DNA of 64,000 bases from an uncultured Chloroflexia bacterium (GCA_963712745.1 CAVQJC010000008.1:1-64000); one strand, 5' to 3'; positions 1-21,090 are shown, counted from the first letter of the stretch. Translations and numbers: made by a program. Notes: a model not told the origin generated them from the letters alone.

Positions 1-46
1 CTGAGCCACTGGCGGACCCGGCCCGCGCATGCGGAGGGGAGATGTC

Positions 47-568
47 ATGCGTACATTGCGGCTGTCCCTGGTCGGGACGGCCATCTTGATGTTGCTCGGT
101 GGGCTGGCTGGCGCGGCCGTGGCGCAGGAGGAGGAGCCCGTCGACCTCATGGCACCGGCAGCGGTGACCATCGAAACGGGCAATCCCCGCCCGGTCTCGG
201 GACCCTCCACGGAGGTCGATGATGCCGGCGTCATCCATTACCGAGGGGTCGAGTTCGCGATGGACTGGGTCGCGAGCGATCCGCGTCTGTCGGGGGCCGT
301 GACCTACCACGGCGCCTGGGACGAATTCGGTGGCTACAGCATCGAGACCAACACCTACGAGGTCGTCAACGAGGGAGGCCGTTGGTTCGGACCCGCGACG
401 GCCATCACGGTGAACGATGTGTGGGTCGAGACCATCGTCCTCGACGGCGAGGGCGGCTACGAGGGGCTAACCGCCTACGTCCTGGGGACGCTCCTCCCCG
501 ATGAGACGAACGCGATCATCTTCCCCGGTGAGCCGATCCCGATGCCGGAACGGAGCCCTGCCCCGTAG
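47..568 (+). CDS. Secreted protein, DPRLSG family (paralog 1)
   Basis: GGAGGGGA RBS before ATG 47; signal peptide MRTLRLSLVG...AVAQ; motifs SDPRLSG, GEGGYEGL and C-terminal IIFPGEPIPMP shared with six other ORFs in the window. Confidence 0.85.
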   Translation: MRTLRLSLVGTAILMLLGGLAGAAVAQEEEPVDLMAPAAVTIETGNPRPVSGPSTEVDDAGVIHYRGVEFAMDWVASDPRLSGAVTYHGAWDEFGGYSIETNTYEVVNEGGRWFGPATAITVNDVWVETIVLDGEGGYEGLTAYVLGTLLPDETNAIIFPGEPIPMPERSPAP

Positions 569-594
569 CTCAGGCGAGACACGGCCCACGACCC

Positions 595-622
595 GAGGCC
601 CGTCCCGCGAGGGGCGGGCCTC
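595..622 (+). repeat. 28-bp GNRA-loop hairpin GAGGCCCGTCCC-GCGA-GGGGCGGGCCTC (copy 1; terminator/REP-like)
   Basis: Inverted repeat with one G-T pair, 26 bp after the stop codon; 8 copies in the first 12.6 kb. Confidence 0.9.
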
Positions 623-627
623 GTCTC

Positions 628-840
628 CTATCCCTCGCCCTCCCCCAGCAGCGCCGCCATCAGCGCGTCCTGCCCGTCCTCGCCGAGCATCGCGAGCTGC
701 CGCGCGACGCGCACGCCGTCGGGCGTGAGGCGCATGGCCGGCTGACCGTCCTCGTCGACGTACTGCTCGACGAGGCCGGCGGCCTCGACCTGCTCGAGGA
801 TGGCGTCGAGCTCGGCGTCGCGGGTCGGCGCGTCGGTCAT
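628..840 (-). CDS. Small hypothetical protein (winged-helix-like fragment)
   Basis: LEQVEAAGLVEQYVD...MRLTPDG resembles a wHTH wing; converges on the hairpin. Confidence 0.55.
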   Translation of the reverse strand: MTDAPTRDAELDAILEQVEAAGLVEQYVDEDGQPAMRLTPDGVRVARQLAMLGEDGQDALMAALLGEGEG

Positions 841-944
841 CGCGCGACGGTAGCGCATGGACGCTGGTGGGAGAATCGTCGTGGTGGTCGAGCCGTGCGA
901 CCAAGGGGGCACCTCCGGCGCGACCCGGCATCGGGGGAGGTCCC

Positions 945-1232
945 ATGAGGAAGCGACTGCTCACGAGTCTGCTCGCGGGTGGATTGATGGCGTCCATGCT
1001 GCCAGGCGTGGCGTCGGCTGACTGGCCCGGGAGCCGAGGGGATGATGGCCCGATGTTCGCCGGCTTCATCTCCTGTGATCTGGTCGGCGGGGGCTCACTG
1101 CTCACCCAGAGCCTTGGCCCGAAGCCGGCGGGCGTCCAGGGCCAACTTCGGAAGGAGTTCAATGCCGCTGTGAAGGACTCGGGCCGGAAGTGCGTGAAGG
1201 AGTCGTTGATCGTCTTCTTCTACAAGGTCTGA
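945..1232 (+). CDS. Small secreted protein
   Basis: GGAGG RBS; signal peptide MRKRLLTSLLAGGLMASMLPGVASA; followed by hairpin. Confidence 0.75.
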   Translation: MRKRLLTSLLAGGLMASMLPGVASADWPGSRGDDGPMFAGFISCDLVGGGSLLTQSLGPKPAGVQGQLRKEFNAAVKDSGRKCVKESLIVFFYKV

Positions 1233-1266
1233 ACCCAAGCACGAGGGCATCGACGCCTGACTTCCA

Positions 1267-1294
1267 GAGGCCCGTCCCGCGAGGGGCGGGCCTC
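1267..1294 (+). repeat. GNRA hairpin repeat copy 2
   Basis: Exact 28-bp match to copy 1, followed by TTCTT. Confidence 0.9.
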
Positions 1295-1422
1295 TTCTTG
1301 TGTCCATCTCGACAACGCATACCGCCACGCTGTACATTGCCGAGTCAAGGTCTGCGGACCTGCGGTCACTGCCGCAGGCTGCGGGTCACGGCCGCGCCTG
1401 GGGGAGAGATGGAGGAGCGCAG

Positions 1423-1701
1423 ATGCGCAAGATTTGGAGAGCCTCCCCGGTGGTCGCCGAGCACGTACCGGCCACCGAGGCCGAACGCGACGGCGACGCG
1501 ATGCGCCGACTCCGCGAGGCGGTGCCGAAGGGCTGGGTCATCGATGCACAAGGCCCGGTCCACTATCTACATGGCGTTACCGAGTGGGAGGTAGAGGTGT
1601 GCGACCCGAGCCATTCTCATTGTGATCGTGGCTTCGGAGCCACGCTGGACGCCGCTGCGGATCGGTGCCGGGAGAGGCTGGAGATGTCTGCTGGCCGCTG
1701 A
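1423..1701 (+). CDS. Hypothetical protein
   Basis: GGAGGAG RBS before ATG 1423; followed by hairpin. Confidence 0.6.
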   Translation: MRKIWRASPVVAEHVPATEAERDGDAMRRLREAVPKGWVIDAQGPVHYLHGVTEWEVEVCDPSHSHCDRGFGATLDAAADRCRERLEMSAGR

Positions 1702-1722
1702 GATCGACACGCAAGCGCATCG

Positions 1723-1750
1723 AAGGCCCGTCCCGCGAGGGGCGGGCCTC
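1723..1750 (+). repeat. GNRA hairpin repeat copy 3
   Basis: 27/28 match to copy 1. Confidence 0.9.
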
Positions 1751-1769
1751 TTCTCATTCCCGCCTGGCG

Positions 1770-1921
1770 TCACGCGGCTGCGCTCAGCGTTCGACCTGGC
1801 GAGCGACGTGGAGGGACCGCGGCTGTACCTGTCGACGGCCATCGGCGATCGCTACCGGGTGCGCGTGCGCGACGACGGGGCGGTCGTGAGGTTGCGGAAG
1901 CGCCGATACGGCCGGTCATAG
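1770..1921 (+). pseudogene. 3' fragment of small GDRYRV-family protein
   Basis: LASDVEGPRLYLSTAIGDRYRVRVRDDGAVVRL aligns with ORF 11606-11839; no start codon. Confidence 0.55.
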
Positions 1922-2193
1922 GGGTCGGGGTACTGCCAGGGGAGTCGAGGTGTCGCCCAGAGGCATCGTGGGCACTACTAAGGCGGGACCCACAGACCGG
2001 AGTAACCCGGTGCCCGTGACCTCGGTCCTGACCCGTGGTCAGGGATATACCGCCGAGGTCGGCAGCGGACGAGTAGGGCGTCGTCGCCATCGGCCTCCCC
2101 ACTTAGCTTCCGGAGTAGCCGATCGTACCGCCCAATGAATGGTCGGAGTCGGTAAGGCGGGACTCCTCACCGCCTTGATACGGGGGTAGTCCA

Positions 2194-3048
2194 GTGAACG
2201 GGAACACTCTTCGTCGCGCCACGGCTTTCACGACTTCCGCGGCACTTCTGGCAGCGCTCACCGTCGGCACTCTCGCCGCGCCCGTAGTCGCGAACGGCGA
2301 CAACGTCATCAGCCCCACTGCGTATGCCACGGTCGTGGACGGCGCGTGCTCGGGTATGTCGCCGCCTCCGCCCCGCGACGGCACCCCTGATTGCGTCCTC
2401 GGGGGCTTCTTCGCGGTCTTGAACCGCGTTCCTCCCGGCCAGGAGGAACGTGCCATCGTCGAGTTCGATGTCTCAGGCCTGCTCTTCCCGCAGTCTTCTG
2501 CGAGGTTCAGTGGCTCGCCGTTCTACAACACCACGGGACCGGCGACGCTCGAACTCTGGGGGTACGTCGGTGATGGGTCCGTGTCCAAGCCCGATTTCGA
2601 CTCCGGCGCCAAGATCATCGCCACGTTCAATCACAGCTCGGGACCACTGTCTCTCGACGTGCTGTCGTTCGTGAACAAGCGGGCCGCCCAGGGCGACAAG
2701 TACGTAGGCTTCGCCATCCGCCAACCGAACCAGAAGGCGGGTCGCAAGAGCTGGGTCTCTCTCAAGCTCACGACGAGCCCGCCGTCGCCGCTGAAGTCGG
2801 TTCGGCACCTCAGTGGCGATGTCGCGAATCTCGACGTCGCTCGGGGAGTCAGGAATGCGCTCGGCGCCTCGCTCGACGTTGCGGTCAGCAAACTCGCCGA
2901 TAGCAGCACGCGCAACGACAAGGCAGCGGTCGGACAGCTGAGAGCCTTCGTAAACAAGGTTGAAGCACAGGCGGGGAAGAAGATCGCCGTCGCTGCTGCC
3001 AAGAACCTAGTCGCGAAGGCAGAACACGTGATCGACCGGCTCAAGTGA
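2194..3048 (+). CDS. Secreted protein with C-terminal FIMAH-like helical domain
   Basis: Signal peptide; C-terminal AAVGQLRAFVNKVEAQAGKKI pattern; followed by hairpin. Confidence 0.8.
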   Translation: MNGNTLRRATAFTTSAALLAALTVGTLAAPVVANGDNVISPTAYATVVDGACSGMSPPPPRDGTPDCVLGGFFAVLNRVPPGQEERAIVEFDVSGLLFPQSSARFSGSPFYNTTGPATLELWGYVGDGSVSKPDFDSGAKIIATFNHSSGPLSLDVLSFVNKRAAQGDKYVGFAIRQPNQKAGRKSWVSLKLTTSPPSPLKSVRHLSGDVANLDVARGVRNALGASLDVAVSKLADSSTRNDKAAVGQLRAFVNKVEAQAGKKIAVAAAKNLVAKAEHVIDRLK

Positions 3049-3076
3049 CCGGGCATCTCGCGCCCGACCGCCATTC

Positions 3077-3104
3077 GAGGCCCGTCCCGCGAGGGGCGGG
3101 CCTC
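3077..3104 (+). repeat. GNRA hairpin repeat copy 4
   Basis: Exact match to copy 1. Confidence 0.9.
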
Positions 3105-3193
3105 TGCTCGTGTCGAGATGGTTCGGGCGAATCGTGCCTTCCGTCACTTGAGCCTGGGCATCGTCGGGCGGACGATGCAGTCGGAGGACCGAC

Positions 3194-3613
3194 ATGACGG
3201 TGACCCGCTGGACGAGGCTTGCAGCCGTCTGGCTACTCGGCATGGGCACGTTCATCGTGGGCGTAGCCGTGTACGGCATCGCATCGAGCCGGTGGGCCTG
3301 CGATCAGCCTCCCGAGTACTCCGGCTACCAGTTCGCGTGTGACGCGGCCTGGATCCTGGGCGCTGTCGCTGTGGTCGTCGCGGCCCTGCATGTCATGGCG
3401 GCGGTCAGCATCTGGCGAGGCCACGTTCGAGGTGCGGTGGCCGGGGTCGTGCTTTCGCTCCTCGGGTTGCTGGGGTGCTCGGGCTTCCTGGAGGACGAAC
3501 GCTGGTGGGTGGTGCTGCCGGTCGCCGCCGGCAACGTCGGTACATCGCTGGTCCTGGCGTATGCACTCATCGCGGACTGGTGGAGTGGAGGACGACACGC
3601 CACGCAGCCATAG
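3194..3613 (+). CDS. Four-TM membrane protein
   Basis: GGAGGA RBS; four hydrophobic segments. Confidence 0.75.
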   Translation: MTVTRWTRLAAVWLLGMGTFIVGVAVYGIASSRWACDQPPEYSGYQFACDAAWILGAVAVVVAALHVMAAVSIWRGHVRGAVAGVVLSLLGLLGCSGFLEDERWWVVLPVAAGNVGTSLVLAYALIADWWSGGRHATQP

Positions 3614-3623
3614 CGGTGTCGGT

Positions 3624-4499
3624 CGTCCCGCGAGGGGCGGGCCTCTTCCTAGTCGGATCGCGGCGACCAACCAGCCCACGACGTGTCCGTGTCCTGTCCG
3701 GTCCCCACGCTCAGCCCCGACGTCGCCGCGAGCCAGATCATCTACAGAGGCATCGACTCCGACACCATCGACCCACTGGTCGTCTGCGGGCGGTCCCATG
3801 ACGTGCTCCAGCAGCTCCTGCACGCTGGAACGGCGCCACCACCCCGCGTGCATGTGTCCGCTCGCAGCGAGGGCTACGATGGAGCCAGACGGTGACTCCG
3901 CCCCTCGTCGCGGCGAGGAGAGGCCGGAGGCCGAGACAGCCCGAAAGGGTGGTCGTCATCAACAAGTCCCACGACTACCACGCCCTCGAGCGCGAGTTCA
4001 TCAGCAGCCGACATCACCCTGAGGGAGTTGTGCAGGCGCCATGGCATCACCGCCCACTCCGCCGTCGTCGTCCAGGCCCGCAAGGGGGACTGGGAGAAGA
4101 AGCGCGAGGCGTATCAGGCCCGGGCGTCGGAGTCCTTCATCGAGCACCACGCCGAGCGCATGGCCGACCGCCAGGCCGAGATCCACGACGAGGTCCTCGA
4201 GGCCATCGCCAGGTTCAGGGCCGACCTGCAGGCGACGAAGCTGGTCAGGCAGCCCGACGGCCGCATCACCGAGGAGCCCGCCTGGTCCATGACACCCCGC
4301 GATGCGTGCCTCATCATCGACCGCTTCCAGGTGCTGTTCGCCAGGCCGTCATCGATCAGCCAGCACCAGGGCCTCACCGTCACCTCCGAGCTGACCGCCG
4401 ATGTCCTCAGCGAGTTCATCGAGGCGACCCGTGGCATGGTCGAGCCACCCTCGCAGGCCTCACCGATCCCGCGATCACCGCGCCGCCTGGACGACCGAG
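3624..4499 (+). repeat. About 880-bp block (truncated hairpin copy 5, mini-ORF, leader, HTH gene) duplicated at about 12576-13469, with a diverged copy at about 8823-9719
   Basis: Near-identical nucleotide runs seen by direct comparison. Confidence 0.9.
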
Positions 4500-4504
4500 C
4501 CTGA
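3949..4504 (+). pseudogene. Terminase-small-subunit-like HTH protein, copy 1 (+1 frameshift near 4008)
   Basis: DYHALEREFI..DI.LRELCRRHGI N-terminus split over two frames; otherwise matches the copies at 9168 and 12907. Confidence 0.65.
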
Positions 4505-4609
4505 GCCCACCGGCCGCCTCGGCTGCCTGCGCCATGCCGTCGGGCCGTCCGGCCCTTGACCCGCTGAGCGGGGCGCGGAGGATGAGCGGCATCCGCATCG
4601 GGGGGCGTG

Positions 4610-5155
4610 ATGGGCAAGCGAGTCGGGGTGTTGACGGGGCTGCTGGTCCTGGCGCTGGGGTCTGGAGCGGTGGCGCAGTCGCCGTCGGCCCACCTTGAGC
4701 CGCAGCGGATGCGAGTCGAGGTCCCCGAGGCTGGCGTGGCCTTCAGCCATCCCCCGGACTGGCACTCTGTCCAACTCACGGACGAGTTCAACAGTGTTCG
4801 GTTGGTCTCGCCCGACGGATGGGTCAGTTGCGACTTGGCTGACCTCACGCCCGATACCTTCGCCACGCTGGATGCTATCGAGTCGGAGTGGATACCGACA
4901 CTCTGGTACGCCCAACCAGACTTCCCCGGTGAGTACACGGTCAGCAGACTCGTGCTGCCGGTCGGTGTCGTGCTCGTGGTGACCCGCGAAGAGGAAACAG
5001 AGGACATCGACTTCCACAACCTCGACTTCTACGTCCCGACGCCCCAGCACTTCACGTTGCTCGGGTGCTCGTGGCTGTCCCCATACGGCGACGCCTTTGC
5101 AGCGGACCTGGTCTCCATCGCCGAGACCTTCGAGTTCCTGCCCGCCGAGGAGTAG
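4610..5155 (+). CDS. Secreted protein (PsbP-like fold possible)
   Basis: Signal peptide; VEVPEAGVAFSHPPDW...SIAETFEFLP pattern. Confidence 0.75.
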   Translation: MGKRVGVLTGLLVLALGSGAVAQSPSAHLEPQRMRVEVPEAGVAFSHPPDWHSVQLTDEFNSVRLVSPDGWVSCDLADLTPDTFATLDAIESEWIPTLWYAQPDFPGEYTVSRLVLPVGVVLVVTREEETEDIDFHNLDFYVPTPQHFTLLGCSWLSPYGDAFAADLVSIAETFEFLPAEE

Positions 5156-5243
5156 GTCGCGGCTGCCGTCGAAGGCCATGCACTCCGCGTTGGAGAAGGT
5201 GGACATGTCCACTGGACTGTCCAGTTGACACGCTACGCGGCGC

Positions 5244-5453
5244 TCACCCGACCTCGAGGTAGTAGTCCAGGACTGCGTGGCTGTTGGGGGCTTGAGTCCG
5301 TCCGGGGCGCCATACCCACGCACCTTCCCGAAGAAGGGCCTGGCCGGTGGTGTCGACTCGATGGAGTCGGGTCCACTGACCGATCCTTGGCCTGGACGCC
5401 CCCACCAGGAGCTGGACGAGCTCCGCGAGCTGGGGACGGGTGGCCTGCTTCAC
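5244..5453 (-). pseudogene. C-terminal remnant of a probable large serine recombinase with att-like core at 5298-5312
   Basis: Frameshifted QLAELVQLLV..VQAKDRSV..TPPARPFF..APDG; homologous to 10190-10320. Confidence 0.55.
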
Positions 5454-5513
5454 ATTCTTGGACTGCCGCGAACCGACGGGAAGCGAGTGCGTGCTGGACT
5501 TCCGGGCGCTTCC

Positions 5514-5542
5514 TGAGACACTTGGGCCACGCTGTTCGTCTA
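5514..5542 (+). promoter_or_regulatory. Putative autoregulatory ECF promoter TGAGACA-N16-CGTCTA (leaderless)
   Basis: ECF-like -35/-10 six nt before the sigma ATG; same geometry at 15512-15540. Confidence 0.55.
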
Positions 5543-5548
5543 TGAGGT

Positions 5549-6091
5549 ATGGGGGTCATGGCAGGGGTCGCAGACACGGACCTCGGTGTCGCCGCCAGGG
5601 CGGCGGCAGCGGGGGACGATGCCGCCTTTGCCCGCATCGTCGCTGCCCACCACGAGGACATGCGCCGCGTGTGCGTGGTCGTGACGGGTGACGAGCAACT
5701 GGCGGAGGACGCGGTCCAGTCGGCTTGGGCGGTCGCCTGGAAGAAGATCGGGACGCTGAGGCAGCCCGAACAACTGCGACCCTGGCTCGTGTCGGTCGCG
5801 GTGAACCAGGCCAGGGACATGCTGCGGAAACGCCGCCGTACACCCGAAGCCCGACTCGATGTCGCGACCGCCCGCGTGACGGGGGGAGTAGATCCTGCGA
5901 CTGGCATCGAGTCGCTGGACCTGTTCACCGCGATGGATCGTCTCGATCCCGAGGACCGCGCCCTCATCGCCATGCGCTACGTCGTCGGCTTCGATGCCAG
6001 CGAGATCGCGTCGGCCATCGGCCTGAGCGCCTCTGGCACCCGCACTCGCCTCGAACGAGTGCTTGACCGACTCAGACAGGAACTCGCGTGA
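5549..6091 (+). CDS. ECF sigma-70 factor
   Basis: Region 2 AEDAVQSAWAVAW..LRPWL and region 4 LIAMRYVVGFDASEIA..GTRTRL. Confidence 0.92.
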   Translation: MGVMAGVADTDLGVAARAAAAGDDAAFARIVAAHHEDMRRVCVVVTGDEQLAEDAVQSAWAVAWKKIGTLRQPEQLRPWLVSVAVNQARDMLRKRRRTPEARLDVATARVTGGVDPATGIESLDLFTAMDRLDPEDRALIAMRYVVGFDASEIASAIGLSASGTRTRLERVLDRLRQELA

Positions 6092-8193
6092 TGGATCCTA
6101 TGAACGCATTCGAACAGCAGCTCTCCCGCGTGGCGACCGAAGTGGCCGGGCCGGTCAGGCCGGTCGATGCCACAGCGGTCGTGCGCTCGGCGAAGGCTGC
6201 TCCAGTACATCGCTGGTCGGTCCGCATACGCGGGTTCCGGAGTGGCGTGACCACCCGAACCGAAGGGGGCTTCTCCACGTTCTCCGCACTGAAGTTCGTC
6301 GCTGCCAGCGTCATCGTGGCGCTGTTCGGCGGCTTCCTGCTCAGCGGTGTCCTCACGACACCGGATGACGACCAGACGGCCCCGGCGGCGGTGACCGCCT
6401 CACCCTCGCCGATGACGACCGAGGAGTTGCTCTCGGGCATGGTCACCGAGGAGGTCGAGCCGGGTGTGTTCCGGGTCGTCAACGACGGATACCGGGACGT
6501 GAGCCACCCTGACGAGGCCAACTGGATGGATGATGCGGTCATCGTGGGTGCCACTGGCGACGTATGGCGCATCACCCCACCGCGCCGCCTCTTCAAACTC
6601 GGGCAGGAGCCGGAGTGGGACTACGACCCTGGTCTGGTGGACATCGGTCAGGCCAAGACCGATGCGGGTCCAGACGGTCGCCTCTGGACCCTCGTCTCGA
6701 GAGGCCTCCGGGTCTTCGAGGGTGGGACATGGAACAACCCGGGCGAGTACGGCTTCAACGTCGACCTCGAGACACTCGCGGTGCAGGACGATGGCACCGC
6801 GTGGTTCCTCGGCAGGGACTCCCTCGGCAAGGACTACCTCGGGTGGGTGCCCCCTGGCGGCGAGCCTGATGGCAGCGGCGGGACGGATGTCTACGACGGC
6901 TCTATCGTGCCCTGGGCACTGGTGGTGTCCAGCGACGGTGCGGCCTGGCTCATGGGTCGCCGCGAAGGGAGCCTTGACACCGACGCGTTCCTCCGCTTCG
7001 ACGGCACCGCCTGGGAGGTGTTCCCCGCACCCGAGGGCATCGAGTTGGGGCTGGGCAGTCCGTTCGATGTCGGACCGGGCGGTGCTTTGTGGACCGCCGG
7101 TGACGCGCTCGGGCGGCACGAGAGCCTCGCTCGTCTCGACGACGAAGGCTGGACCATCTTCACCGAGGCCGACGGCGTGGAGCCATGGGGCCAGCAGCCG
7201 CTGGGCTACGTCCCCACGGACCTCGTCAAGATCGCTCCCGATGGCAGTGCGTGGGTGAACGCCACCGACGCGGTGACGCCGACCTGCGACGGACTGGCTC
7301 GCTTCGACGGCGAGACATGGACCTCGTTCCTATCCGGGCGATGCGTCTCGGACCTCGACTTCGCCCCTGACGGCAGCCTCTGGGTGGTAGTCCGGGAGCC
7401 AGACTTCACGTCCGAGGTCGACACCTACGTCATCACCCCCGAGGCCGCAGCGGACGAAGTCGTCGGCACGTCGGCGCTGCAGGTCGAGGAGGGACCGCTC
7501 GTCTATGTGCCGATGGGCAACTCGCTCACCTTCTTTCCAATGTCTGGCTCTGACAACTTCAATGCTCGCTACGCCGCGATGCTGGAGGCAGACTTCGGTG
7601 TCGATGTCGAGGTTCGTCCCCACACCGTCGGCGGCCAGCGGACCGATGACTTCCTCGAGCAGCTGCGCACCGATGACCGCCTGCGAGAGGATCTGGGGGA
7701 GGCTGATGTGGTCACGCTGCTGATACCGAACGACGAATGGGCCGAACCCTTTTCGACGGCGGCCGGAGCCGAGGGTCGCGACCCGTCCGACTGCGGGGGT
7801 GAGGACCATCAGCAGTGCCTGCGTGACGTGATCGACTCCTACAAGCAGCAGGTCGATCGGATCTTCGACGAGCTGACGGCCATCGTGGACCCGGCGGAGA
7901 CCCTGATCCGCGTCCAGGACTTCTATCAATTCATGACGAACGTAACTACGCCGGAAGCCTTCGACCTCACGTATCCGTATTGGCGCGAAGGTCAGGAGTA
8001 TGTCGAGCAGGTCGCGGGCCAGCACGGGATACCGGTGGCCCAGGTCTTCGATGACTTCATGGGCACGGACGGTCTCTACATCGACCTCGTGGCCGACGGC
8101 TTGGTCGGGCCTGACGGCCTGCACCCGACAGCGGAGGGTGCCGGACGCATGGCCACGTTGGTGCACGATCTCGGATACGACCTGGCGGACTGA
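6088..8193 (+). CDS. Putative membrane anti-sigma factor with beta-propeller and C-terminal SGNH/GDSL hydrolase domain
   Basis: Overlaps the sigma stop; single TM (FVAASVIVALFGGFLL); repeated APDGxxW/RFDGxxW; SGNH blocks MGNSLT, PND, DGLHPT. Confidence 0.8.
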   Translation: MMDPMNAFEQQLSRVATEVAGPVRPVDATAVVRSAKAAPVHRWSVRIRGFRSGVTTRTEGGFSTFSALKFVAASVIVALFGGFLLSGVLTTPDDDQTAPAAVTASPSPMTTEELLSGMVTEEVEPGVFRVVNDGYRDVSHPDEANWMDDAVIVGATGDVWRITPPRRLFKLGQEPEWDYDPGLVDIGQAKTDAGPDGRLWTLVSRGLRVFEGGTWNNPGEYGFNVDLETLAVQDDGTAWFLGRDSLGKDYLGWVPPGGEPDGSGGTDVYDGSIVPWALVVSSDGAAWLMGRREGSLDTDAFLRFDGTAWEVFPAPEGIELGLGSPFDVGPGGALWTAGDALGRHESLARLDDEGWTIFTEADGVEPWGQQPLGYVPTDLVKIAPDGSAWVNATDAVTPTCDGLARFDGETWTSFLSGRCVSDLDFAPDGSLWVVVREPDFTSEVDTYVITPEAAADEVVGTSALQVEEGPLVYVPMGNSLTFFPMSGSDNFNARYAAMLEADFGVDVEVRPHTVGGQRTDDFLEQLRTDDRLREDLGEADVVTLLIPNDEWAEPFSTAAGAEGRDPSDCGGEDHQQCLRDVIDSYKQQVDRIFDELTAIVDPAETLIRVQDFYQFMTNVTTPEAFDLTYPYWREGQEYVEQVAGQHGIPVAQVFDDFMGTDGLYIDLVADGLVGPDGLHPTAEGAGRMATLVHDLGYDLAD

Positions 8194-14580: not shown

Positions 14581-14583
14581 CTG

Positions 14584-14990
14584 CTAGAGGTAGGCTGCCA
14601 GCTTCTCCTCGGTACTGGCAGTTAGCACCCCGCGCCCGTCCGGGGCCGCCATTGCCAGACCGGCGTAGAACGGCCGAACTTCGGGCCTCGGCTCGATGGC
14701 GATGACCTCGCCGCGTCGGACCTCGACTCGCTCGACGTTGTGTCGGACGATCGCTCCCTGATGTTCCTGGCCAGCCTCGCGGATGATCTCGCCCATCGGT
14801 AGCAGCGTGGCCGCAGCCCGGTCGAAGGCGACGAGGTTCGACTCCTCGGGTGGCGGAAGCTCGGCAGGCTTGGTGCCAATTGCTGTCGCTGTCGCAGATA
14901 CTGGTTCTGATCGATGTTCTGCCAGAGGTGAAGGTCGTTGAGGCGTCGGAGCGCGGCCTCGAGACGCCCGCGCTGGATGCTCATGGATTG
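14584..14990 (-). pseudogene. C-terminal remnant of a probable large serine recombinase with att-like core at 14636-14651
   Basis: LEAALRRLNDLHLWQNIDQNQY coiled coil, then VERVEV...PRPEVRPFY..APDG..EEKLAAYL over several frames. Confidence 0.6.
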
Positions 14991-15174
14991 ATCAGGGACT
15001 GCTGCCGCGTGCCACGCAGGTGGCAAGTCCCACGGCTACCATCCTCTTGACGCCGATGAGCGTCACCCATCCAGAGCGGACGAGGGACTCGGCCCGATGA
15101 CTCCGCAGCAACCAGTCGGCTCCCTCAGCCGACACGGTGCTAACGCCGAGCGATGGTCAAAGGAGGGCCACCCC

Positions 15175-15435
15175 ATGGGTATCAAGCTCGACGTGTCGGT
15201 TGAGACACCCCTGTCCGATGACGAGCGCGACATCCTCGCGGGCATCAGCGTGATGGTGCTTGCCATCGCCAACCGCCAGAATCTCGCGAAGCAGGCCCTG
15301 GATCTGGAGGACGCCACGGAGGGCATGGAACCGCCCGTCTGTGCTGTTCAGCGTGAGGACGGCCACTACTGCGTGCGCGAGGCCGGCCACTCGGGCCGTC
15401 ACAAGTGCCGGCCTCTCAACGGCCTGATGCACTAG
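15175..15435 (+). CDS. Small protein with C-terminal C-x8-C-x5-H-x3-H putative metal-binding motif
   Basis: AAGGAGG RBS; CAVQREDGHYCVREAGHSGRH. Confidence 0.65.
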   Translation: MGIKLDVSVETPLSDDERDILAGISVMVLAIANRQNLAKQALDLEDATEGMEPPVCAVQREDGHYCVREAGHSGRHKCRPLNGLMH

Positions 15436-15511
15436 GTAGCCTCGGAGTCGGTGGACGAAGCACGCCCGCCGCGTCATCACAGCTTCAGGCCGAGAGCAAG
15501 TTGCCCCGCCT

Positions 15512-15540
15512 TGTCACAGTAGGCCGACGCCGTGCAGTTA
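15512..15540 (+). promoter_or_regulatory. Putative autoregulatory ECF promoter TGTCACA-N16-CAGTTA (leaderless)
   Basis: Same spacing (N16, N6 to ATG) as 5514-5542. Confidence 0.5.
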
Positions 15541-15546
15541 TGGGGT

Positions 15547-16092
15547 ATGGAGGCGGTGACACGGATGAAGGCCCGACAGAGCGACACGCTCGCGTCCGCT
15601 GCTGCCGGTGACGAGATCGCCTTCCGCCGCATCATCGCGGCGCACCACGAGGACATGCGCAGGGTCTGCCTTGCGGTCGCAGGTGACCACGCCGTCGCCG
15701 AAGAAGCCGTCCAGGCAGCCTGGCTTGTCGCGTGGAAGAAGCTCGACCGGGTCCACGGCCCCGACCAGCTCCGTCCATGGCTCGTCTCCGTGGCGGTCAC
15801 CGAAGCCAAGCAACTGCTGCGCAGGCAACGGCGACGTGCCGAGGTTGAGGCCATGGTGGACGCCACCGTTGAACCCGCCAGCGCCGATCCCGCGACGGGC
15901 ATCGCGTCCGTCGATCTCAAGGCAGCCCTGTTTCGGCTCGACGCCGATGACCGTGCCCTGCTAACGATGCGGTATGGCGCGGGCTTCAACTCCAACGAGC
16001 TCGCCGTCGCGACCGGCAAGTCGCCGGCAGCCATCCGCCAACGCCTCAAGCGCCTTGTTGACCGACTCCGTGAGGACCTGAGCCATGACTGA
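15547..16092 (+). CDS. ECF sigma-70 factor (paralog of 5549-6091)
   Basis: AAHHEDMRRVC...AEEAVQAAW...QLRPWLVSVAV; region 4. Confidence 0.92.
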   Translation: MEAVTRMKARQSDTLASAAAGDEIAFRRIIAAHHEDMRRVCLAVAGDHAVAEEAVQAAWLVAWKKLDRVHGPDQLRPWLVSVAVTEAKQLLRRQRRRAEVEAMVDATVEPASADPATGIASVDLKAALFRLDADDRALLTMRYGAGFNSNELAVATGKSPAAIRQRLKRLVDRLREDLSHD

Positions 16093-17464
16093 CATGACCG
16101 CCTTCGAGCGCCAACTGTCGGACGAGATCGCGGGCCTCATGGGTCCTGTCCGGCCCGTCGATGACGCCGCGATCTTCACCGCCATCACCGCCACCCAGTC
16201 CCCCAAGTGGAGGTTCCAGTCCATGTTCAGTGCGACCAAGTTCGTCGTCGCCGGTGCCATCGTGGCCCTGTTCGGCGGCTTCCTGCTCAGCGGGGTCCTG
16301 ACGCAGCCGAGCGACGAGGAGCCGTTCCCCCCTGCTGCCGCGTCGGCATCGTCGTCGCCCGAGGCAGACACGTCGGAACAGTCGGTGCGCTCCGACCTCC
16401 TGCCGGGCGTGGACCTCGTCACCGAGGAGGTCGAGCCGGGGGTGTACCGGGTACTGAGTGACGGCGTGCGGGACCTGAGTCGGGAGCTCGGCGCGCACCC
16501 GTGGTTCGATCGTACGGGCGGGTCTCTCGCCCTTGACGCGTTCGGGAGCGACATCTCGATCGCGCCGGATGGGTCGGTGTGGTACTTCGGGCCGGATGGC
16601 TCATATCGGATCGGGGACGCAAGCCGAGCGATCTCCGTCCAGTCCGAGCCAGTGAACCCTCGGTCGATCGAGTGGGCCACCGACGGCACCGCCTGGGGGA
16701 CCACGCATCAGCTCGTCAGGTTCGCGGACGGATCGTGGACCGCCGACGAGGACTTCCCTCGGAACACATCGGTCGGGGCCGTCGGAGCCGCTCCAGACGG
16801 CGTCGTTTGGGCAGCCTCCGACAACGGGAAGAAGGGTCGGGTGAGCCGGCTCGACGCGGACGGGTGGACACACATCGACGCAGTGCCTCGCGTCCAGATC
16901 GGGGACCTGAAGCCTGGCCACGACGACGATGTCTGGCTGATGGGGGGCCAGGAACGCCCCACCCTCGTACATTTCGATGGGTCGGGGTGGAACGTCGAAG
17001 AACCGACGGTCGTCCCACCCGATCACCGAGCAACGCTGATCGAGATGGCCGCCGATGGCTCCCTCTGGGCCTACTTCGGGGCTGGCGAGACGAGCCCCGG
17101 CTACCTTGGCCGGTACCAGGACGGCGAATGGACGGTGTTCAGCCCCGAGGACGGCGTTCCCGAGGCAGGAGGCTTCCTCTCCGGCATGGGCGCACCGGGC
17201 CTGATGGAGGCTGCGCCTGATGGCAGACTCTGGCTCACGCCCGAGGGGGACTGGCAGCGGACCAGCAACGACTGCGACGGCGTCACCAGCTTCGATGGCC
17301 AGACGTGGACGGGGTTCCTGTCGGGTGAATGCATCTACGGACTCGATGCAGCCGAAGACGGGACCCTCTGGCTCCTGGCCGGACGGCCCGAACGAGACGG
17401 CGACCGACCCGGCGACAGCCACACGTACGTCATCACCCCCGAGGCCGTGGCGGCCACCGAGTAG
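16085..17464 (+). CDS. Putative membrane anti-sigma factor with extracellular beta-propeller
   Basis: N-terminus and TM homologous to 6088; APDG repeats; ends TYVITPEAVAATE. Confidence 0.8.
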   Translation: MTDMTAFERQLSDEIAGLMGPVRPVDDAAIFTAITATQSPKWRFQSMFSATKFVVAGAIVALFGGFLLSGVLTQPSDEEPFPPAAASASSSPEADTSEQSVRSDLLPGVDLVTEEVEPGVYRVLSDGVRDLSRELGAHPWFDRTGGSLALDAFGSDISIAPDGSVWYFGPDGSYRIGDASRAISVQSEPVNPRSIEWATDGTAWGTTHQLVRFADGSWTADEDFPRNTSVGAVGAAPDGVVWAASDNGKKGRVSRLDADGWTHIDAVPRVQIGDLKPGHDDDVWLMGGQERPTLVHFDGSGWNVEEPTVVPPDHRATLIEMAADGSLWAYFGAGETSPGYLGRYQDGEWTVFSPEDGVPEAGGFLSGMGAPGLMEAAPDGRLWLTPEGDWQRTSNDCDGVTSFDGQTWTGFLSGECIYGLDAAEDGTLWLLAGRPERDGDRPGDSHTYVITPEAVAATE

Positions 17465-17709
17465 GGGCGCGGCAGCCGCCAACCAGACCACCACCCGACC
17501 ATGACCTCACCACCCTTCACGCTCAGCGCCGCGAGCCAGATCCAGGCAGGGATAGACCCCGACACGACCGTCATCTGCCCCTGCTCGAGCTGAGCCGCAC
17601 CGACATCGGCGTCACGGCGGTGCCCTGAAAACGGCGCCGCTCGCTCACGGGCATCCACCATCCTCGAAGGCTTCTGTGGCTGGTCGCGAGGGGGAGACTC
17701 TGGGAACGA

Positions 17710-17771
17710 GCGGGAGGCGATGAGGCACGGCCCACACCCTGGCCGCCGGGACCGCGCCGAGCCACTGGCGG
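17710..17771 (+). repeat. About 60-bp upstream element also at 11904-11966 (3' part at 2-15)
   Basis: GCGGGAGGCGATGAGGCACGGCCCACACCCTGGCCGCCGGGACCG..CCGAGCCACTGGCGG near-identical. Confidence 0.85.
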
Positions 17772-18262
17772 TGGCCTGCGGGAAGTGCGGACCATGCAGG
17801 GGACCGATGTGCTGTTGTCGCTCCCCCGAGATCGCCGGCGTCTTCATCGGCTTCGGGGCGCTCATCGCCGTGCGCGGCGGCGCCAGGCCAAGGCCGACCC
17901 ACTCGAGCTCAGTCCGTCCCACGCCGTTTCACCGCGCCAGAGGCCGCACTATCTGTCGCGTCGGTAACGGTACTGACGCAGATGAGCGTCCCTCCACAGC
18001 GACTCCCCGAGTTCCTCGAGTACCGCCTCGCGCCTGAGCCCACGACGCAAGGAGAGAAGCGATAGCCACACGGCAGGGTGATGGACCACCCTCGGCCACG
18101 GCGGGGCGTACGGGCGTTCTGGCGATGTCGCCTAGCAGGTGCCTATCTCGATGAAAACGGCTAATCCCGGCCTTGGTCGGCACCCGTACCCTATAGAGGA
18201 CCGGAACAGACTCGGTCCCCTCCGATGACCAGAGCGGTCGTCGGCCAAAGGGATGTGGGGGC

Positions 18263-18826
18263 ATGGACCAAGACCTCGTGGTGCGGGTTCAGCAAGGCGA
18301 CCAGCGTGCCTTCGAGGCACTCGCGCTGGCCGACCACCCACGCTTGTATCGGGTCGCCCACGGCATCCTCCGTGACCATCAGTCCGCTGAGGACGCGACC
18401 CAGCAGGCATTGCTCGACATCTGGCGTGACATCCATCGCCTACGTGAGCCATCCAAGTACGAGGGCTGGTCGTACCGACTCCTCGTCCATGCGTGTGGCA
18501 GAGAGGCCAAGCGGAGGCCGGATTGGCTCCCGGCCGACGCGATACCGCCAGAGCGGCAACCCCGGTCGGCTGATGAGTACGACACCGTCCTCGACCGTGA
18601 CCAACTGGAACGAGGGTTCCAGCATCTCTCTGTCGGCCACCGGGCCGTGGTCGTCCTTCGATACCTCTTGGACCTCACACCGGAGCAGGTGGCCGAGGTG
18701 CTGGGTATCCCTCGACGGACCGTCTACTCACGGCTCAAGCGAGCGATGCCGACCATGCGGGCTGCAATCGAAGCCGACGCACGCGGGACCACGCCGAGGC
18801 GAGTCGAGGAGGGGGCACTGCGATGA
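18263..18826 (+). CDS. ECF sigma-70 factor
   Basis: AEDATQQALLDIW..WSYRLL; VVVLRYLLDLTPEQVAEVLGIP..TVYSRL. Confidence 0.92.
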   Translation: MDQDLVVRVQQGDQRAFEALALADHPRLYRVAHGILRDHQSAEDATQQALLDIWRDIHRLREPSKYEGWSYRLLVHACGREAKRRPDWLPADAIPPERQPRSADEYDTVLDRDQLERGFQHLSVGHRAVVVLRYLLDLTPEQVAEVLGIPRRTVYSRLKRAMPTMRAAIEADARGTTPRRVEEGALR

Positions 18827-19683
18827 CCGATGACCGTCAGTCCGGCGTCCTCTTCGAGTCGTGGCTCAAGGACACCGACCCGATGCCAGCCGATGCGCGG
18901 CCCAACGTCGCCCGGGTCATGGCCCGCGTGCCGCAGACCCGCCAGCGTGGTCGCTGGTGGCCGCTGCCTTCGTTCCATCGGAAGGCTCAGTCACGCACCG
19001 CCACCGACACGACCGACTATCAGCCCAGCCCCGTCCCGGCCACCAACGGCCATGCCCCCGCTGTCATCGGGAGGACCCAAATCATGTTCAGCCCAGTCAA
19101 GCTCATCACCGCCGGGGCGCTCATCTTCGCCATCGGCGGCGTGCTGCTCATCGCCCAGCCTTTCGACCAGCAGGGCAGCGTCCCGGGCGCCGAGCAAGGA
19201 GCGGAGCCAGCATCGACCACGCCCGATGTCCGTACGCCCGCCGAAGTCACGGGTGTCATCAAGGAGGTTCGGCGGAACCAGCCGTCCGAAGTCGTCCAGT
19301 CGCCGACCGAGTTCACTTCGTCGCCGTTCGTGACCGTGACGACGAACTTCGGCTACACGATGTTGATGGAGACCGATGACCCGCGGCTGAGCGGAACGTA
19401 CGAGACGAACCAGACCTCCCAGCAGTACGGCACCACCGGCGGGGTCAGGACCGGTATCGGACGACTGGCTAACGAAGGCGGCTCCTGGGCGTCGGAGTTC
19501 CGGGGGTTGTCGGCGCTAGGAGGGGTCACCTTCGTGCACTTCCTCACCGGCGAAGGCGGGTACGAAGGCGTCTCGGCGATGCTGCTGACACTGCCAGCCG
19601 AAAGCGGTTGGGAGGTCACGGGGTTCGTCGCACCGGACCCGTTGCCTGCGCCACCGGAGTGGGTCCTGCCGCCCACCGAATAG
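18823..19683 (+). CDS. Putative anti-sigma factor with C-terminal DPRLSG domain (paralog 4)
   Basis: ATGA overlap with the sigma gene; TM AGALIFAIGGVLLIAQPF; DDPRLSG, GEGGYEGVSA. Confidence 0.8.
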   Translation: MTDDRQSGVLFESWLKDTDPMPADARPNVARVMARVPQTRQRGRWWPLPSFHRKAQSRTATDTTDYQPSPVPATNGHAPAVIGRTQIMFSPVKLITAGALIFAIGGVLLIAQPFDQQGSVPGAEQGAEPASTTPDVRTPAEVTGVIKEVRRNQPSEVVQSPTEFTSSPFVTVTTNFGYTMLMETDDPRLSGTYETNQTSQQYGTTGGVRTGIGRLANEGGSWASEFRGLSALGGVTFVHFLTGEGGYEGVSAMLLTLPAESGWEVTGFVAPDPLPAPPEWVLPPTE

Positions 19684-19911
19684 CGGCGGTCTCCGAGTCA
19701 TCACCCGCGAGACCGTGGCGGCCATCGAGTAGCACGTGCTGGTGGCTCACGCAGCCAGCAACTCCATCACGAGCATATCGACACTCGATACCACGAACGT
19801 TGGCCGAGCGCCCCTGGAACCGTCCGGGGGCGCAATCACCTGTGCCTGCGGTGTCCTTGACACCCTGTCGACAGGCTCGCTGTGGTCCGTCCGGCAGGGG
19901 CCCTCAGCCAG

Positions 19912-20877
19912 CTACTCGACCGAGGTACCGAAGCGCTGCTCGTAGGTGAGCAGGTCGGCGACCGAGACATTGCCGCCGCAGAGCACCAGGACCACGTGGT
20001 CTGACGGTCCGAAGCGCTCGGCGACATTCTGGAAGGCCGCCAGCGTGCAGGCGGCCGCCAGCTCTGCGAGGACCTTCGCTCGCTCGAGCAGGAAGACCGC
20101 GGCTGCGTAGGCCATCGCGTCGGTCACGACCAGTGACTCGTGGACGTGCTCCGACGCGAACTCGAACGCCGCCGTCGCCAGGTAGGGCGAGCCGAGCGTG
20201 CGGGCCAGGCTCGTCGGGGTCATCGACAATGGTCGCCCGGCGGCCAGCGAATCGTGGAGCACCTGGGCCCCATCGGTCTCCACAGCCCAGATCCTCACCG
20301 CGGACTTCAGAGCATGGACGGCCGACCCGACACCGGTGATGAACCCGCCACCGCCGACGCTGATGAAGATGTCGGTCAGGTCCGGGACGTCCTCGATGAG
20401 CTCGAGACCGAGCGTGCCGTCGCCAGCCATCATCGCGGGATGGTCGAAGGGGTGCGCCAGCGTCGCACCTGACTGCGCGAGTTCCTCCGTCCGGGCGAAT
20501 GCGGCCGCCATGCCCTCGACGAGCTCCACCGTCGCACCGTAGCCACGACTGGCGTTCACGTAGTTATCAGGCGTCGTGTCCGGCATCACGATCGTGGTCG
20601 AGACGCCGAGAGCGGCCCCGGCATAGGCGAGACCCTGGGCGAAGTTGCCGCCCGACACCCCCACGAAACTGTCGGCGCCGGTCTCCTCCATGAGCACGAG
20701 GAGTTGGTTGAACGCGCCGCGGGGCTTGAACGACCCGGTCTTCTGGGACAGTTCCAGCTTCAGGTACACGTTCGTGCCCGCGCGCTCGGAGAGCGTGGAG
20801 CTACGGACGAGCGGGGTGCGGTGAACGAGCCCGGCGACTCGGCCACGTGCGGCATGGATGTCGTTCAGGTCGATCAC
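19912..20877 (-). CDS. PLP-dependent threonine/serine dehydratase family (no ACT domain)
   Basis: KLE..QKTGSFKPRGA, SGGNFAQG, VGGGG, LCGGN. Confidence 0.92.
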   Translation of the reverse strand: MIDLNDIHAARGRVAGLVHRTPLVRSSTLSERAGTNVYLKLELSQKTGSFKPRGAFNQLLVLMEETGADSFVGVSGGNFAQGLAYAGAALGVSTTIVMPDTTPDNYVNASRGYGATVELVEGMAAAFARTEELAQSGATLAHPFDHPAMMAGDGTLGLELIEDVPDLTDIFISVGGGGFITGVGSAVHALKSAVRIWAVETDGAQVLHDSLAAGRPLSMTPTSLARTLGSPYLATAAFEFASEHVHESLVVTDAMAYAAAVFLLERAKVLAELAAACTLAAFQNVAERFGPSDHVVLVLCGGNVSVADLLTYEQRFGTSVE

Positions 20878-20894
20878 GTGGGCGACGATACGTT

Positions 20895-21090
20895 ATGTCG
20901 CGGACCAGATCCGGGACTACCACGCCCTCGAGCGCGCGCGCAGAACAAGCCAGCTCTCCCTGCGCAAGCTGTGCCGTCGCCCTGGCCTCAGCGCCCACCC
21001 CTGCGTCGTCGTCCCGGTGCAGAAGGGGAGGTGAGGTCCGTGACACCGTCCTCGACGCCATCGATGAAGCCATCACCAGCTTCCGCCGAC
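20895..21090 (+). pseudogene. Degraded fourth copy of the TerS-like HTH gene
   Basis: RDYHALER..LSLRKLCRRPGLSAH and EVRDTVLDAIDEAITSFR match copies 1-3, with an internal deletion. Confidence 0.7.

Follow-up and report, generated by a model that had tools for sequence, protein, structure and literature searches.

Probable remnants of tRNA-targeting serine recombinase elements with TerS-like genes stacked in an uncultured Chloroflexia bacterium

What kind of system produced the repeated gene order near the start of this DNA? The window, by which we mean the whole 64,000-nucleotide stretch analysed (contig C8 of an uncultured Chloroflexia bacterium, GCA_963712745.1), had been described in an earlier note as a satellite-like or integron-like locus of accreted cassettes, in which a hairpin, a mini-ORF, a structured leader, an HTH gene, a cargo gene and an inverted recombinase tail recur three times. 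The recurrence was confirmed for the hairpin, the TerS-like (HTH) gene, the cargo, the core and the recombinase remnant, which lie in unit 1 at 3624-3648, 3946-4504, 4607-5155, 5298-5312 and 5313-5457 (minus strand), in unit 2 at 8826-8850, 9168-9719, 9751-9963, 10041-10056 and up to 10243 (minus strand, with homology to 10323), and in unit 3 at 12576-12600, 12907-13605, 13583-13981 (minus strand), 14636-14651 and 14584-14796 (minus strand). The mini-ORF was not supported, as 1-nt indels distinguish copies 1 and 3 across that stretch, and copies said to be near-identical measured 92% to 74% identity between TerS units (92% for units 1 and 3). We consider it very probable that positions 1-19835 are the distal part of a variable island hanging on the 3' end of tRNA-Arg(CCT), in which small integrative elements of large serine recombinases (LSRs), arranged head to tail, accreted and then decayed.

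tRNA-derived cores and recombinase tails

The core, CCGTCCGGGGGCGCCA, is the 3' end of tRNA-Arg(CCT) at C4:287565-287640. Copies of this 16-nt end were found four times in the window, all on the plus strand (starting at 5298, 10041, 14636 and 19820), and the stacked elements measure 4.6-5.2 kb each (core-to-core spacing 4743, 4595 and 5184 nt). Core copy 1 (5298-5312) lacks one G of the tRNA end and has a pseudo-tRNA-like left arm of type B; copies 2 (10041-10056, 16/16) and 3 (14636-14651, 15/16) have left arms of type A; and copy 4 (19820-19835, 15/16) forms, with a type C arm, the distal boundary at 19750-19835 (plus strand), beyond which comes the conserved flank. This last junction also has a degenerate duplicate, at 14113-14196. 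In a genome-wide search at up to one mismatch the core occurred only on C4 (2 sites) and C8 (3 sites, plus 1 copy with a deletion), and direct repeats of the target tRNA 3' end are present at element boundaries (4 cores in the window, 2 in C4). The core count alone is weak evidence (at up to two mismatches, 3 observed versus 0.53 expected, with 3 reached in 2 of 100 shuffles); the weight comes from the abutting LSR fragments and the conserved arms.

Cores 1-3 each abut a minus-strand C-terminal LSR fragment, and the recombinase tails of the earlier note are indeed C-terminal LSR ends with the core at ...APPDG. These ORFs align with the C-terminus of a 571-aa LSR of the relative G005, which has Resolvase, Recombinase and Zn_ribbon_recom domains and whose C-terminus lies inside the antisense tRNA. 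The remnant at 5313-5457 is of short-tail type 3 and is 84% identical to 10185-10323. The 84-aa ORF at 9989-10243 (minus strand) matches the full-length G005 protein at residues 501-554 (81% identity), and its frame passes through the core at APPDG and terminates (RGALTAKPEEKLAAYL) within the left arm. The 70-aa ORF at 14584-14796 represents a second tail subtype (type 2) that recurs in metagenome loci: the fragment is present in L059 (two copies) and L099, and L071 matches it at residues 39-70 only. The three window tails are of three different types, and among 35 core sites compared, left arms A and B were each paired with right arms 1, 2 and 3 (6/6 combinations); a recognised LSR tail followed arm C in 0 of 5 sites. 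As judged from these comparisons, the three tail types and the mixed arm combinations argue for separate arrivals of the units, which are bounded by att-like direct repeats, so that the att scars and repeated events of the earlier note were upheld. The intact serine recombinase that it proposed to look for is present in G005 and was not found in this genome, which has no intact LSR of this family; neither a Resolvase nor a Recombinase domain was found anywhere in C8, which has C-terminal LSR fragments only, and the full-length LSR occurs in just 1 of 49 genomes of the genus. Integrons combine an IntI-type tyrosine recombinase beside attI with promoterless attC cassettes; the integron-like label was not supported, as C8 has no tyrosine integrase (Phage_integrase domain), the repeats are tRNA-derived, and riboswitches and leaders come with the cassettes themselves.

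The tRNA lies on C4 and the array begins at the contig end of C8, and we infer their adjacency from synteny only. Collinearity of G005:C7 with the window extends from the 48533 gene down to the gene of a PLP-dependent enzyme (PALP, 19912-20877, minus strand), a flank marker beyond the island; past PALP, G005:C7 carries an island of 14 kb, followed by the LSR and the tRNA and then by a flank matching C4:286112-287665. In five relatives PALP is on the same contig as tRNA-Arg(CCT), in constant relative orientation and at a distance of 12.1 to 57.9 kb, a variation in island length that amounts to presence/absence polymorphism. In G005 the tRNA core and a second core (2 mismatches) enclose a discrete LSR element of 6.3 kb, and the DNA past it matches the sequence after the tRNA in C4 (82-84%). 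This element is absent from C4, where ~26 nt of the LSR tail remain as a scar; this site beside the tRNA does not amount to a clean empty one. For the MAG, completeness is 84.55% and contamination 5.03%, and it is partly mixed, C2 running collinear with C1 (75-80% identity). Public read data yielded short contigs only and showed neither excised nor circular forms.

TerS-like genes and their cargo

The HTH gene turned out to be a TerS homologue, as the earlier note had suggested. The three copies, all on the plus strand, are copy 1 (3946-4504, with a frameshift near 4008-4010), copy 2 (9168-9719, an intact 183-aa gene with 174 database relatives, mostly of ~183 aa) and copy 3 (12907-13605, which lost its stop and whose homology ends at ~13468). 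Copy 3 matched the TerS family phrog_1206 (E 8e-8; E 6.5e-3 for copy 2). The AF2 model has an HTH (pLDDT ~90) followed by a helix at 58-94, and its best BFVD fold match is a small terminase (E 5e-3, TM ~0.3); searches of Pfam, NCBIfam and the PDB gave no match. Homologues of 45-50% identity lie immediately upstream of Terminase_6C and Phage_portal genes in the phage-like metagenome contigs L094 and L086. Judged by this homology, the 183-aa gene is a member of the genuine small-terminase (TerS) family. The large terminase gene (terL) that directly follows the L094 and L086 homologues does not follow the TerS-like genes in the window. A cognate TerL or portal was not found in this genome, and TerL relatives within the genus are distant (32-36% identity, 3 of 49 genomes). 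Four of the five TerS copies in the assembly are disrupted; the ORF was intact in 14/14 full-length copies analysed, a set selected for intactness (median dN/dS ~0.5). The gene is preceded by a conserved promoter-like region and 5'UTR (9048-9167, plus strand) with a 10-bp hairpin supported by 2 covarying pairs, and matching elements precede the other copies (~3840-3945 and ~12795-12906, plus strand). The three remnants listed in the earlier note were also recovered: a fragment of the upstream leader (17476-17528, 68% identity), the arm and core at the distal boundary, and, past the last core, a scrap of a fourth TerS-like gene (20904-21089, plus strand; tblastn 3e-8).

Does the core accompany the TerS gene elsewhere? 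In other samples 30 loci were examined, and 10 of them have the core downstream on the TerS strand (8 exact, 2 with one mismatch); among the 11 loci whose downstream DNA extends for 1 kb or more, 7 have it. In these 10 loci and the three window units the distance from TerS to core is 85-3670 nt, and terL is never next. Two TerS units of this assembly (C2 and C10) have no nearby core. The intact G005 element, the sole one seen in the genus, has no TerS gene; because of this, and of the C2 and C10 units, TerS and LSR may not belong to one element. In locus L064 two exact cores flank a complete unit of 5.96 kb with a SAM riboswitch, a small ORF, an ECF gene, an anti-sigma gene and TerS, and recombinase-less units with an identical truncated tail recur across several metagenome contigs.

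Each window unit opens with its minus-strand LSR remnant, and in the three that bear a TerS gene this gene is near the right end, with variable cargo between the unit ends. The island cargo comprises ECF sigma/anti-sigma pairs and secreted paralogues, and the three pairs of the earlier note were all confirmed, each on the plus strand: 5549-6091 with 6088-8193 (whose anti-sigma has a C-terminal GDSL hydrolase domain), 15532-16092 with 16085-17464, and 18263-18826 with an anti-sigma-like gene at 18823-19683, the C-terminus of which belongs to the secreted paralogue family. The second operon and a Cys-rich small ORF (15175-15435) are preceded by a SAM-I riboswitch (15064-15181, plus strand; 58 bits, gathering score 44.4), and a c-di-GMP-II-GCG variant riboswitch (11898-11983, plus strand; 61.2 bits, gathering score 47.9) stands before the secreted-family gene at 11948-12544. 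A further copy of this variant, at 17704-17785, is below threshold. Of the genome's Sigma70_r2 matches, 5/41 fall inside the ~30 kb of island sequence, an enrichment in ECF genes. As the earlier note stated, there is no capsid gene, TerL, replication gene or intact integrase here, and no domains of a replication module or phage-responsive regulator were found among the genes of 1-19835. Its hairpin is not unit-specific. This GC-rich structure (12576-12600, plus strand; 12 bp, GCGA loop, dG -28.7 kcal/mol; other copies start at 601, 1273, 1729, 3083, 3624 and 8826) follows the stop codon of a plus-strand gene in all seven window copies, only three of which precede a TerS gene, and it has 17 exact copies genome-wide; we read it as the terminator of the preceding gene.

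Possible origin and alternative explanations

In the mechanism that we propose, an LSR would recombine the attP of its element with the tRNA 3' end and regenerate the tRNA. Because the core lies ~16 codons before the LSR stop, integration would exchange the C-terminal tail of the recombinase. Related elements arriving later would push older ones outward, and deletions would then strip most of each LSR gene, leaving att-flanked units without recombinase. Units Eb, Ec and Ed have att sites on both sides and neither a recombinase nor a transfer gene, as is characteristic of cis-mobilizable elements (CIMEs). To our knowledge, typical LSRs do not use attL/attR as targets, which counts against the stacking model. 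The array in this genome is probably a fossil, and any current mobility is putative, since there is no intact LSR here and a full-length one in a single genome of the genus. The TerS gene was probably captured from a phage; at present it may serve helper-phage packaging or may assist recombination as a DNA-binding accessory.

A more far-reaching proposal, which we regard as unlikely, is that the 4.6-6 kb units are a family of minimal, mostly recombinase-less Chloroflexia 'hitch-hiker' islands. A tail-switching LSR specific for tRNA-Arg would excise them in trans, a helper phage would package them by way of the TerS that they encode, and riboswitch-gated ECF sigma/anti-sigma circuits would in this manner pass ready-made between cells. 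If true, they would form a class of satellites that exchange signalling modules, not genes for defence or virulence.

Could the units be non-autonomous PICI-like phage satellites, excised by an LSR in cis or trans, with their own TerS directing packaging by a helper TerL, the packaged DNA probably being multimers or headfuls taken in situ from the array? SaPI/PICI elements have the integrase at one end, their own TerS near the other and accessory genes after it; the units likewise start on the left with the integrase and have TerS close to the right end, followed by 0-2 accessory genes and an att site. The close homology to phage TerS proteins encoded beside TerL and portal, the conserved leader of the gene, the intact ORFs under a dN/dS of ~0.5 (in copies chosen as intact) and the shared truncated tail of recombinase-less units in several contigs also favour this explanation. 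Nevertheless we find it quite improbable: replication, capsid-remodelling and phage-sensing genes are absent from all units, 4.6-6 kb is far smaller than a headful, the genome has no cognate TerL or portal and the genus distant TerL only, most TerS copies of the assembly are disrupted, and the intact G005 element is without TerS.

It is very unlikely that ordinary LSR prophages gave rise to the units as stumps, by deletion of everything between integrase and terS. LSRs are common phage integrases, and TerS homologues are present in phage-like contigs; however, these contigs have terL directly after terS on the same strand, where the islands have the core, and independent deletions would not produce the compact layout shared by different samples (L064 and L059). 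Moreover, G072, from another genus of the family, has an LSR orthologue (54% identity) that adjoins a RepSA replication initiator (pSAM2-type, E 2e-131) and not phage genes, in an 8.8-kb element with repeats of a tRNA-like end on both flanks.

That a chromosomal block was simply duplicated in tandem and then diverged, with coincidental tRNA-like 16-mers and no site-specific recombination, is already disfavoured and in our view scarcely credible: dispersed paralogues and repeated leaders are abundant in the genome, the core count by itself is weakly above chance and TerS units 1 and 3 are alike, but every core abuts an LSR gene fragment whose full-length homologue terminates in the real tRNA, the tails are of three types, cargo varies from unit to unit, and other samples have identical cores and arms combined differently.

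Comparison with known systems

The stack of decayed LSR elements shares features with several described systems. Integrase and own TerS lie at opposite ends with accessory genes after, as in SaPI/PICI elements (PICI description in the available part of bioRxiv 10.1101/2020.12.28.424599). The units differ from these in having no replication, regulatory or capsid-size genes, a third to half of the size and no known helper; their own TerS is present, but neither a replication module nor a phage-responsive regulator was found among the genes of 1-19835. The G072 element resembles pSAM2-type (AICE-like) elements in its RepSA, which was not found in this genome in a weak search (control genomes likewise gave no match). 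pSAM2 itself has a tyrosine integrase.

Att-flanked recombinase-less units beside related elements are also reported, in the portions of the sources available to us, as streptococcal ICE/IME cis-mobilizable elements (Pavlovic 2004 via PMC3146451; PMC5704250, PMC7563491); those, however, have tyrosine integrases and conjugation, and trans-mobilisation here is putative. An attachment site within the integrase coding sequence, with integration giving a new 3' end, is described for Mx8 intP/attP in the available text of PMC6070905, and a site inside the integrase gene likewise for SSV-type integrases (PMC7253208, in part). Those are tyrosine recombinases, whereas here the enzyme is an LSR and only ~16 codons are exchanged.

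In Prochlorococcus tycheposons, according to the accessible part of Hackl et al. (bioRxiv 10.1101/2020.12.28.424599), repeated tRNA integration drives older elements into the island, where broken integrases and partial tRNAs stay behind; a minority have large serine recombinases, and some are PICI-like with terS or a capsid gene. The array resembles them in tRNA targeting, stacking, fragmented recombinases, LSR use and terS. In that same text the PICI-like tycheposons are always without cargo and those with cargo have replication genes, whereas here TerS and cargo share one unit without a replication gene.

The Dehalococcoides ssrA islands, as the consulted portion of McMurdie et al. 2011 (PMC3146451) describes them, lie in tandem downstream of a small-RNA gene, each bounded by a ~20-bp repeat of its 3' end, with a ~540-aa serine recombinase on the reverse strand beside attL; 15 islands without an integration module were read as cis-mobilizable elements joined by accretion. 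They share with our array a Chloroflexota host, stacking, small-RNA 3'-end repeats and a reverse-strand serine recombinase. Set against that portion, the target here is tRNA-Arg(CCT) and not ssrA, the units are much smaller and lack the six-gene integration module (DsiA, ParB etc.), the cargo is ECF modules rather than reductive dehalogenases, TerS is an orphan, and the recombinase ORF itself spans the core. The earlier note's impression that the architecture is undescribed was not supported, since even the available parts of PMC3146451 and bioRxiv 10.1101/2020.12.28.424599 report tandem accretion at tRNA/tmRNA genes, including recombinase-less units. Our best reading is that the kind of system is not new, namely tandem accretion and decay of tRNA-targeting LSR elements, comparable to Dehalococcoides ssrA islands, tycheposons and cis-mobilizable elements; what is unusual here is the orphan TerS, the recombinase tail swapped on integration and the riboswitch-gated ECF cargo.

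Recombinase remnants and a tRNA-derived core

The earlier note had described recurring recombinase tails with an att core, and these turned out to be C-terminal fragments of a large serine recombinase (LSR) with the core at APPDG, as is evident from a full-length homologue of 571 aa in the related genome G005. In the window, short minus-strand ORFs at 9989-10243 and 14584-14796 had no family match; a genus-wide search led from the first of them to the end of far longer frames, and its G005 version is the 571-aa protein, which carries Resolvase, Recombinase and Zn_ribbon_recom domains. Beyond ...VGLAPPDG, the final codons of the G005 LSR are the antisense of the tRNA-Arg(CCT) gene, and the 16 nt coding for APPDG (CCGTCCGGGGGCGCCA) equal the 3' end of this tRNA. 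The gene itself lies in the source assembly at C4:287565-287640 (contig C4), and no tRNA gene was found within the 64-kb window. On the plus strand the core is present at 10041 (16/16 identical), at 14636 and 19820 (15/16 identical in each) and at 5298 (one G missing); all but the copy at 19820 are followed by a minus-strand LSR remnant. A genome-wide search found the core elsewhere only in C4, at two sites. No recombinase domain of any kind was detected throughout C8 (the contig of the window), nor was an intact LSR of the G005-type family found in the source assembly, and Pfam and NCBIfam searches gave no match for the LSR tails, the TerS (small terminase-like) gene or the secreted family discussed below.

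The sequence to the left of the core falls into three types of arm (A, B and C). An LSR frame that runs into arm A ends in ...APPDG-RGALTAKPEEKLAAYL, and the RGALTAKPEEKLAAYL-type tail is kept in two other genomes with conservative changes. Because the frame reads through the core into this arm-encoded tail, integration at the tRNA would swap the last ~16 residues of the LSR. The locus supplies a serine recombinase that has a natural, defined attB within a tRNA and a C-terminus that would change upon integration. Phage Mx8 is a precedent for a recombinase end changed in this way (PMC6070905), there with a tyrosine integrase. In another genus, an LSR orthologue is found beside a pSAM2-type RepSA, which argues that the recombinase lineage is plasmid-like and not phage-like. 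A RepSA search of the source genome found none, a weak absence as the control genomes also gave none.

Probable separate arrivals at one tRNA gene

The repeated events that the earlier note had proposed are supported by the variety around the core. The LSR tails in the window are of three types (long at 10041, a different one of 70 aa at 14636 and a short one at 5298). Arms were typed at 35 core sites (window, C4, relatives and metagenome contigs), and all three tail types were found with arm A as well as with arm B. Arm C was followed by a recognised LSR tail in none of five cases, as expected of a distal attR. Such reassortment at the core is a prediction of site-specific recombination between related elements; duplication in situ does not predict it. 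An integron-like cassette locus, also raised earlier, was rejected.

We compared the window with G005, whose contig C7 is collinear with it between the gene at 48533 and a PLP-enzyme gene (19912-20877, minus strand). Beyond the PLP-enzyme gene, C7 continues with an island of 14 kb, the LSR and the tRNA, followed by a flank matching C4:286112-287665. The simplest reading is therefore that the assembler broke a single island of at least 30 kb into window 1-19835 and C4:287640-297790. In five relatives, one contig carries both the tRNA and the PLP-enzyme gene, in constant relative orientation and 12.1, 14.05, 21.2, 30.9 and 57.9 kb apart, so that the island is variable at a fixed tRNA. G005 also holds a discrete element of 6.3 kb, bounded by the tRNA core and another core (two mismatches), with genes for the LSR, a 122-aa protein, a small ORF preceded by a SAM riboswitch, an ECF sigma factor, an anti-sigma factor and two unknown proteins. 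Past this element the G005 DNA matches the C4 sequence after the tRNA at 82-84%. A 26-nt scar of an LSR tail remains beside the tRNA in C4, which is thus no clean empty site. Variable DNA extends beyond the last core, since G005 lacks, between its orthologues of the PLP-enzyme gene and the gene at 24638, the stretch at 20878-24637, which holds a gamma-glutamyltranspeptidase-like gene (21210-22796), two secreted-family genes and a TerS scrap.

These arrangements are consistent with a mechanism in which the LSR would catalyse integration at the tRNA 3' end, older units would be displaced outward, LSR genes would be deleted from the units, and the units might then be mobilised in trans.

The source assembly (4.2 Mb, 68% G+C, 84.55% complete, 5.03% contamination; the window is the first 64 kb of C8) seems to combine contigs from two related organisms. 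Contig C2 is collinear with C1:337-514 kb at 75-80% nucleotide identity with identical tRNA order, and because the assembly is thus partly mixed, copy counts across contigs may merge two organisms. The TerS units of C8 match the one on C2 at 94-95% identity. A stretch of 1032 nt at 2079-3110, covering a secreted gene (weak FIMAH match) and a hairpin, reappears inverted and with 99% identity at the extreme end of contig C10 (C10:177187-178216), owing either to an inverted duplication of recent date or to a path left unresolved by the assembler. In twenty public runs the share of sampled words present did not exceed 0.28, and four of these runs gave short contigs only. One such contig spans the 10041 core (9776-10140, 1 difference), and a B-type arm is connected with the core near 10039 by one joint. 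Fragmented as they were, the read data could not reveal excision, and excised or circular forms were indistinguishable from a tandem junction.

The repeated block and its TerS gene

Repeat finding and BLAST confirmed a recurring block of ~0.9-1 kb in three copies (3624-4499, 8826-9671 and 12576-13468), copy 1 being 91.8% identical to copy 3 and ~74% to copy 2. Further copies lie on C2 and C10, and a scrap at 20904-21089. Each block begins with a 12-bp GCGA-loop hairpin (dG -28.7 kcal/mol), followed by a conserved leader and lastly by the ~183-aa gene. The hairpin does open each block as had been claimed, but it is not private to it: there are seven in the window, all just 3' of the stop codons of plus-strand genes, and 17 exact copies genome-wide. 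Our interpretation is that it serves as a common terminator. The proposed mini-ORF was discarded, its frame being broken by single-base indels between copies 1 and 3. In the leader, a 10-bp hairpin is conserved with two covarying pairs among 18 sequences.

That the HTH gene is TerS-like held up. Its 183-aa protein has 174 database relatives, mostly of ~183 aa and unnamed or 'transposase-like', and copy 3 matched the small-terminase family phrog_1206 (E 8e-8). The AF2 model (mean pLDDT 68.7, HTH ~90) had a TerS as its best match in BFVD (E 5e-3); a fold search of the PDB gave nothing below E 0.6. Synteny is decisive for the identity: on two metagenome contigs, homologues of 45-50% identity lie directly 5' of Terminase_6C and Phage_portal proteins. 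The gene is thus of phage ancestry, and in the islands no terL ever follows it. No Terminase_6C was found in the source genome, and a search of the genus for a helper phage found only distant TerL relatives. The locus supplies an orphan TerS with packaging or a recombination accessory function as candidate roles.

A core lies downstream on the same strand in 10 of 30 TerS loci of at least 57% identity (8 exact, 2 with one mismatch) and in 7 of the 11 for which 1 kb or more of downstream DNA is available, and in L064 (a metagenome locus) a whole 5.96-kb unit lies between two exact cores. A strict coupling of TerS to the LSR is disfavoured by three observations: the intact G005 element lacks TerS, the copies on C2 and C10 have no core nearby and four of the five copies in the source assembly are disrupted. 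A TerS alignment profile showed no relation to three unknown genes of the G005 element, and tRNA-Ser(TGA) 3'-end repeats sought around the C2 unit matched only at tRNA genes themselves. Searches of the genus recovered TerS from 6 of 24 relatives and LSR tails from 10 of 48; four genomes carry both. More distant homologues (46-48% identity) occur twice on each of two further contigs, 4.86 kb apart, with radical-SAM and permease genes between them and the tRNA-Arg core absent; these may be tandem TerS units with other attachment sites.

Cargo, riboswitches and related islands

Three ECF sigma/anti-sigma pairs (5549-8193, 15532-17464 and 18263-19683) form part of the cargo, and 5 of the 41 genome matches to Sigma70_r2 lie within ~30 kb of island. 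The second ECF pair, with a small Cys-rich ORF in front, stands behind a SAM-I riboswitch (58 bits, 15064-15181), a layout shared with C4, G005, the related genome G055 (two aptamers) and L064. Two of the three SAM riboswitches genome-wide lie in the island, and none of the papers in the one literature collection searched mentions both 'SAM riboswitch' and 'ECF sigma'. The combination of SAM-I, Cys-rich ORF and ECF operon was seen in five sources (window 15064-15435, C4:291119-291510, L041:17422-17519, L021:2072-2585 and L064:1245-1626), one of which has a tandem pair of aptamers.

A c-di-GMP-II-GCG variant riboswitch (11898-11983) lies 5' of a secreted paralogue, and a second, sub-threshold site is at 17704-17785. 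The model has 47 matches in the 4.2-Mb assembly, 32 of them over the curated score, which is a very large expansion. Those matches that were compared with gene calls lie 5' of members of one secreted paralogue family, which has a C-terminal GEGGYEG(L/V)SAM-like motif. Small ORFs ending in ...RYRV(R/K)V.DDG.VV.L.RR occur at 1778-1903, 10362-10442 and 11606-11839 (minus strand), with two more at the start of contig C20 (6581-6811 and 10450-10533), and have no family match.

The locus illustrates how an island of sensory genes may be built and reshuffled in an uncultured Chloroflexia lineage: complete ECF sigma/anti-sigma circuits, each bringing a riboswitch of its own, would reach one tRNA gene as small cassettes, and one ECF operon stands behind a SAM riboswitch. 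The earlier note did not recognise the architecture, but the same pattern is known. In Dehalococcoides, ssrA islands occur in tandem, each bounded by a 20-bp repeat, and a serine recombinase of ~540 aa is encoded on the reverse strand next to attL (PMC3146451); 15 islands that lack an integration module were interpreted there as cis-mobilizable elements. The pattern of our locus corresponds to that of these islands and to that of tycheposons (bioRxiv 10.1101/2020.12.28.424599).
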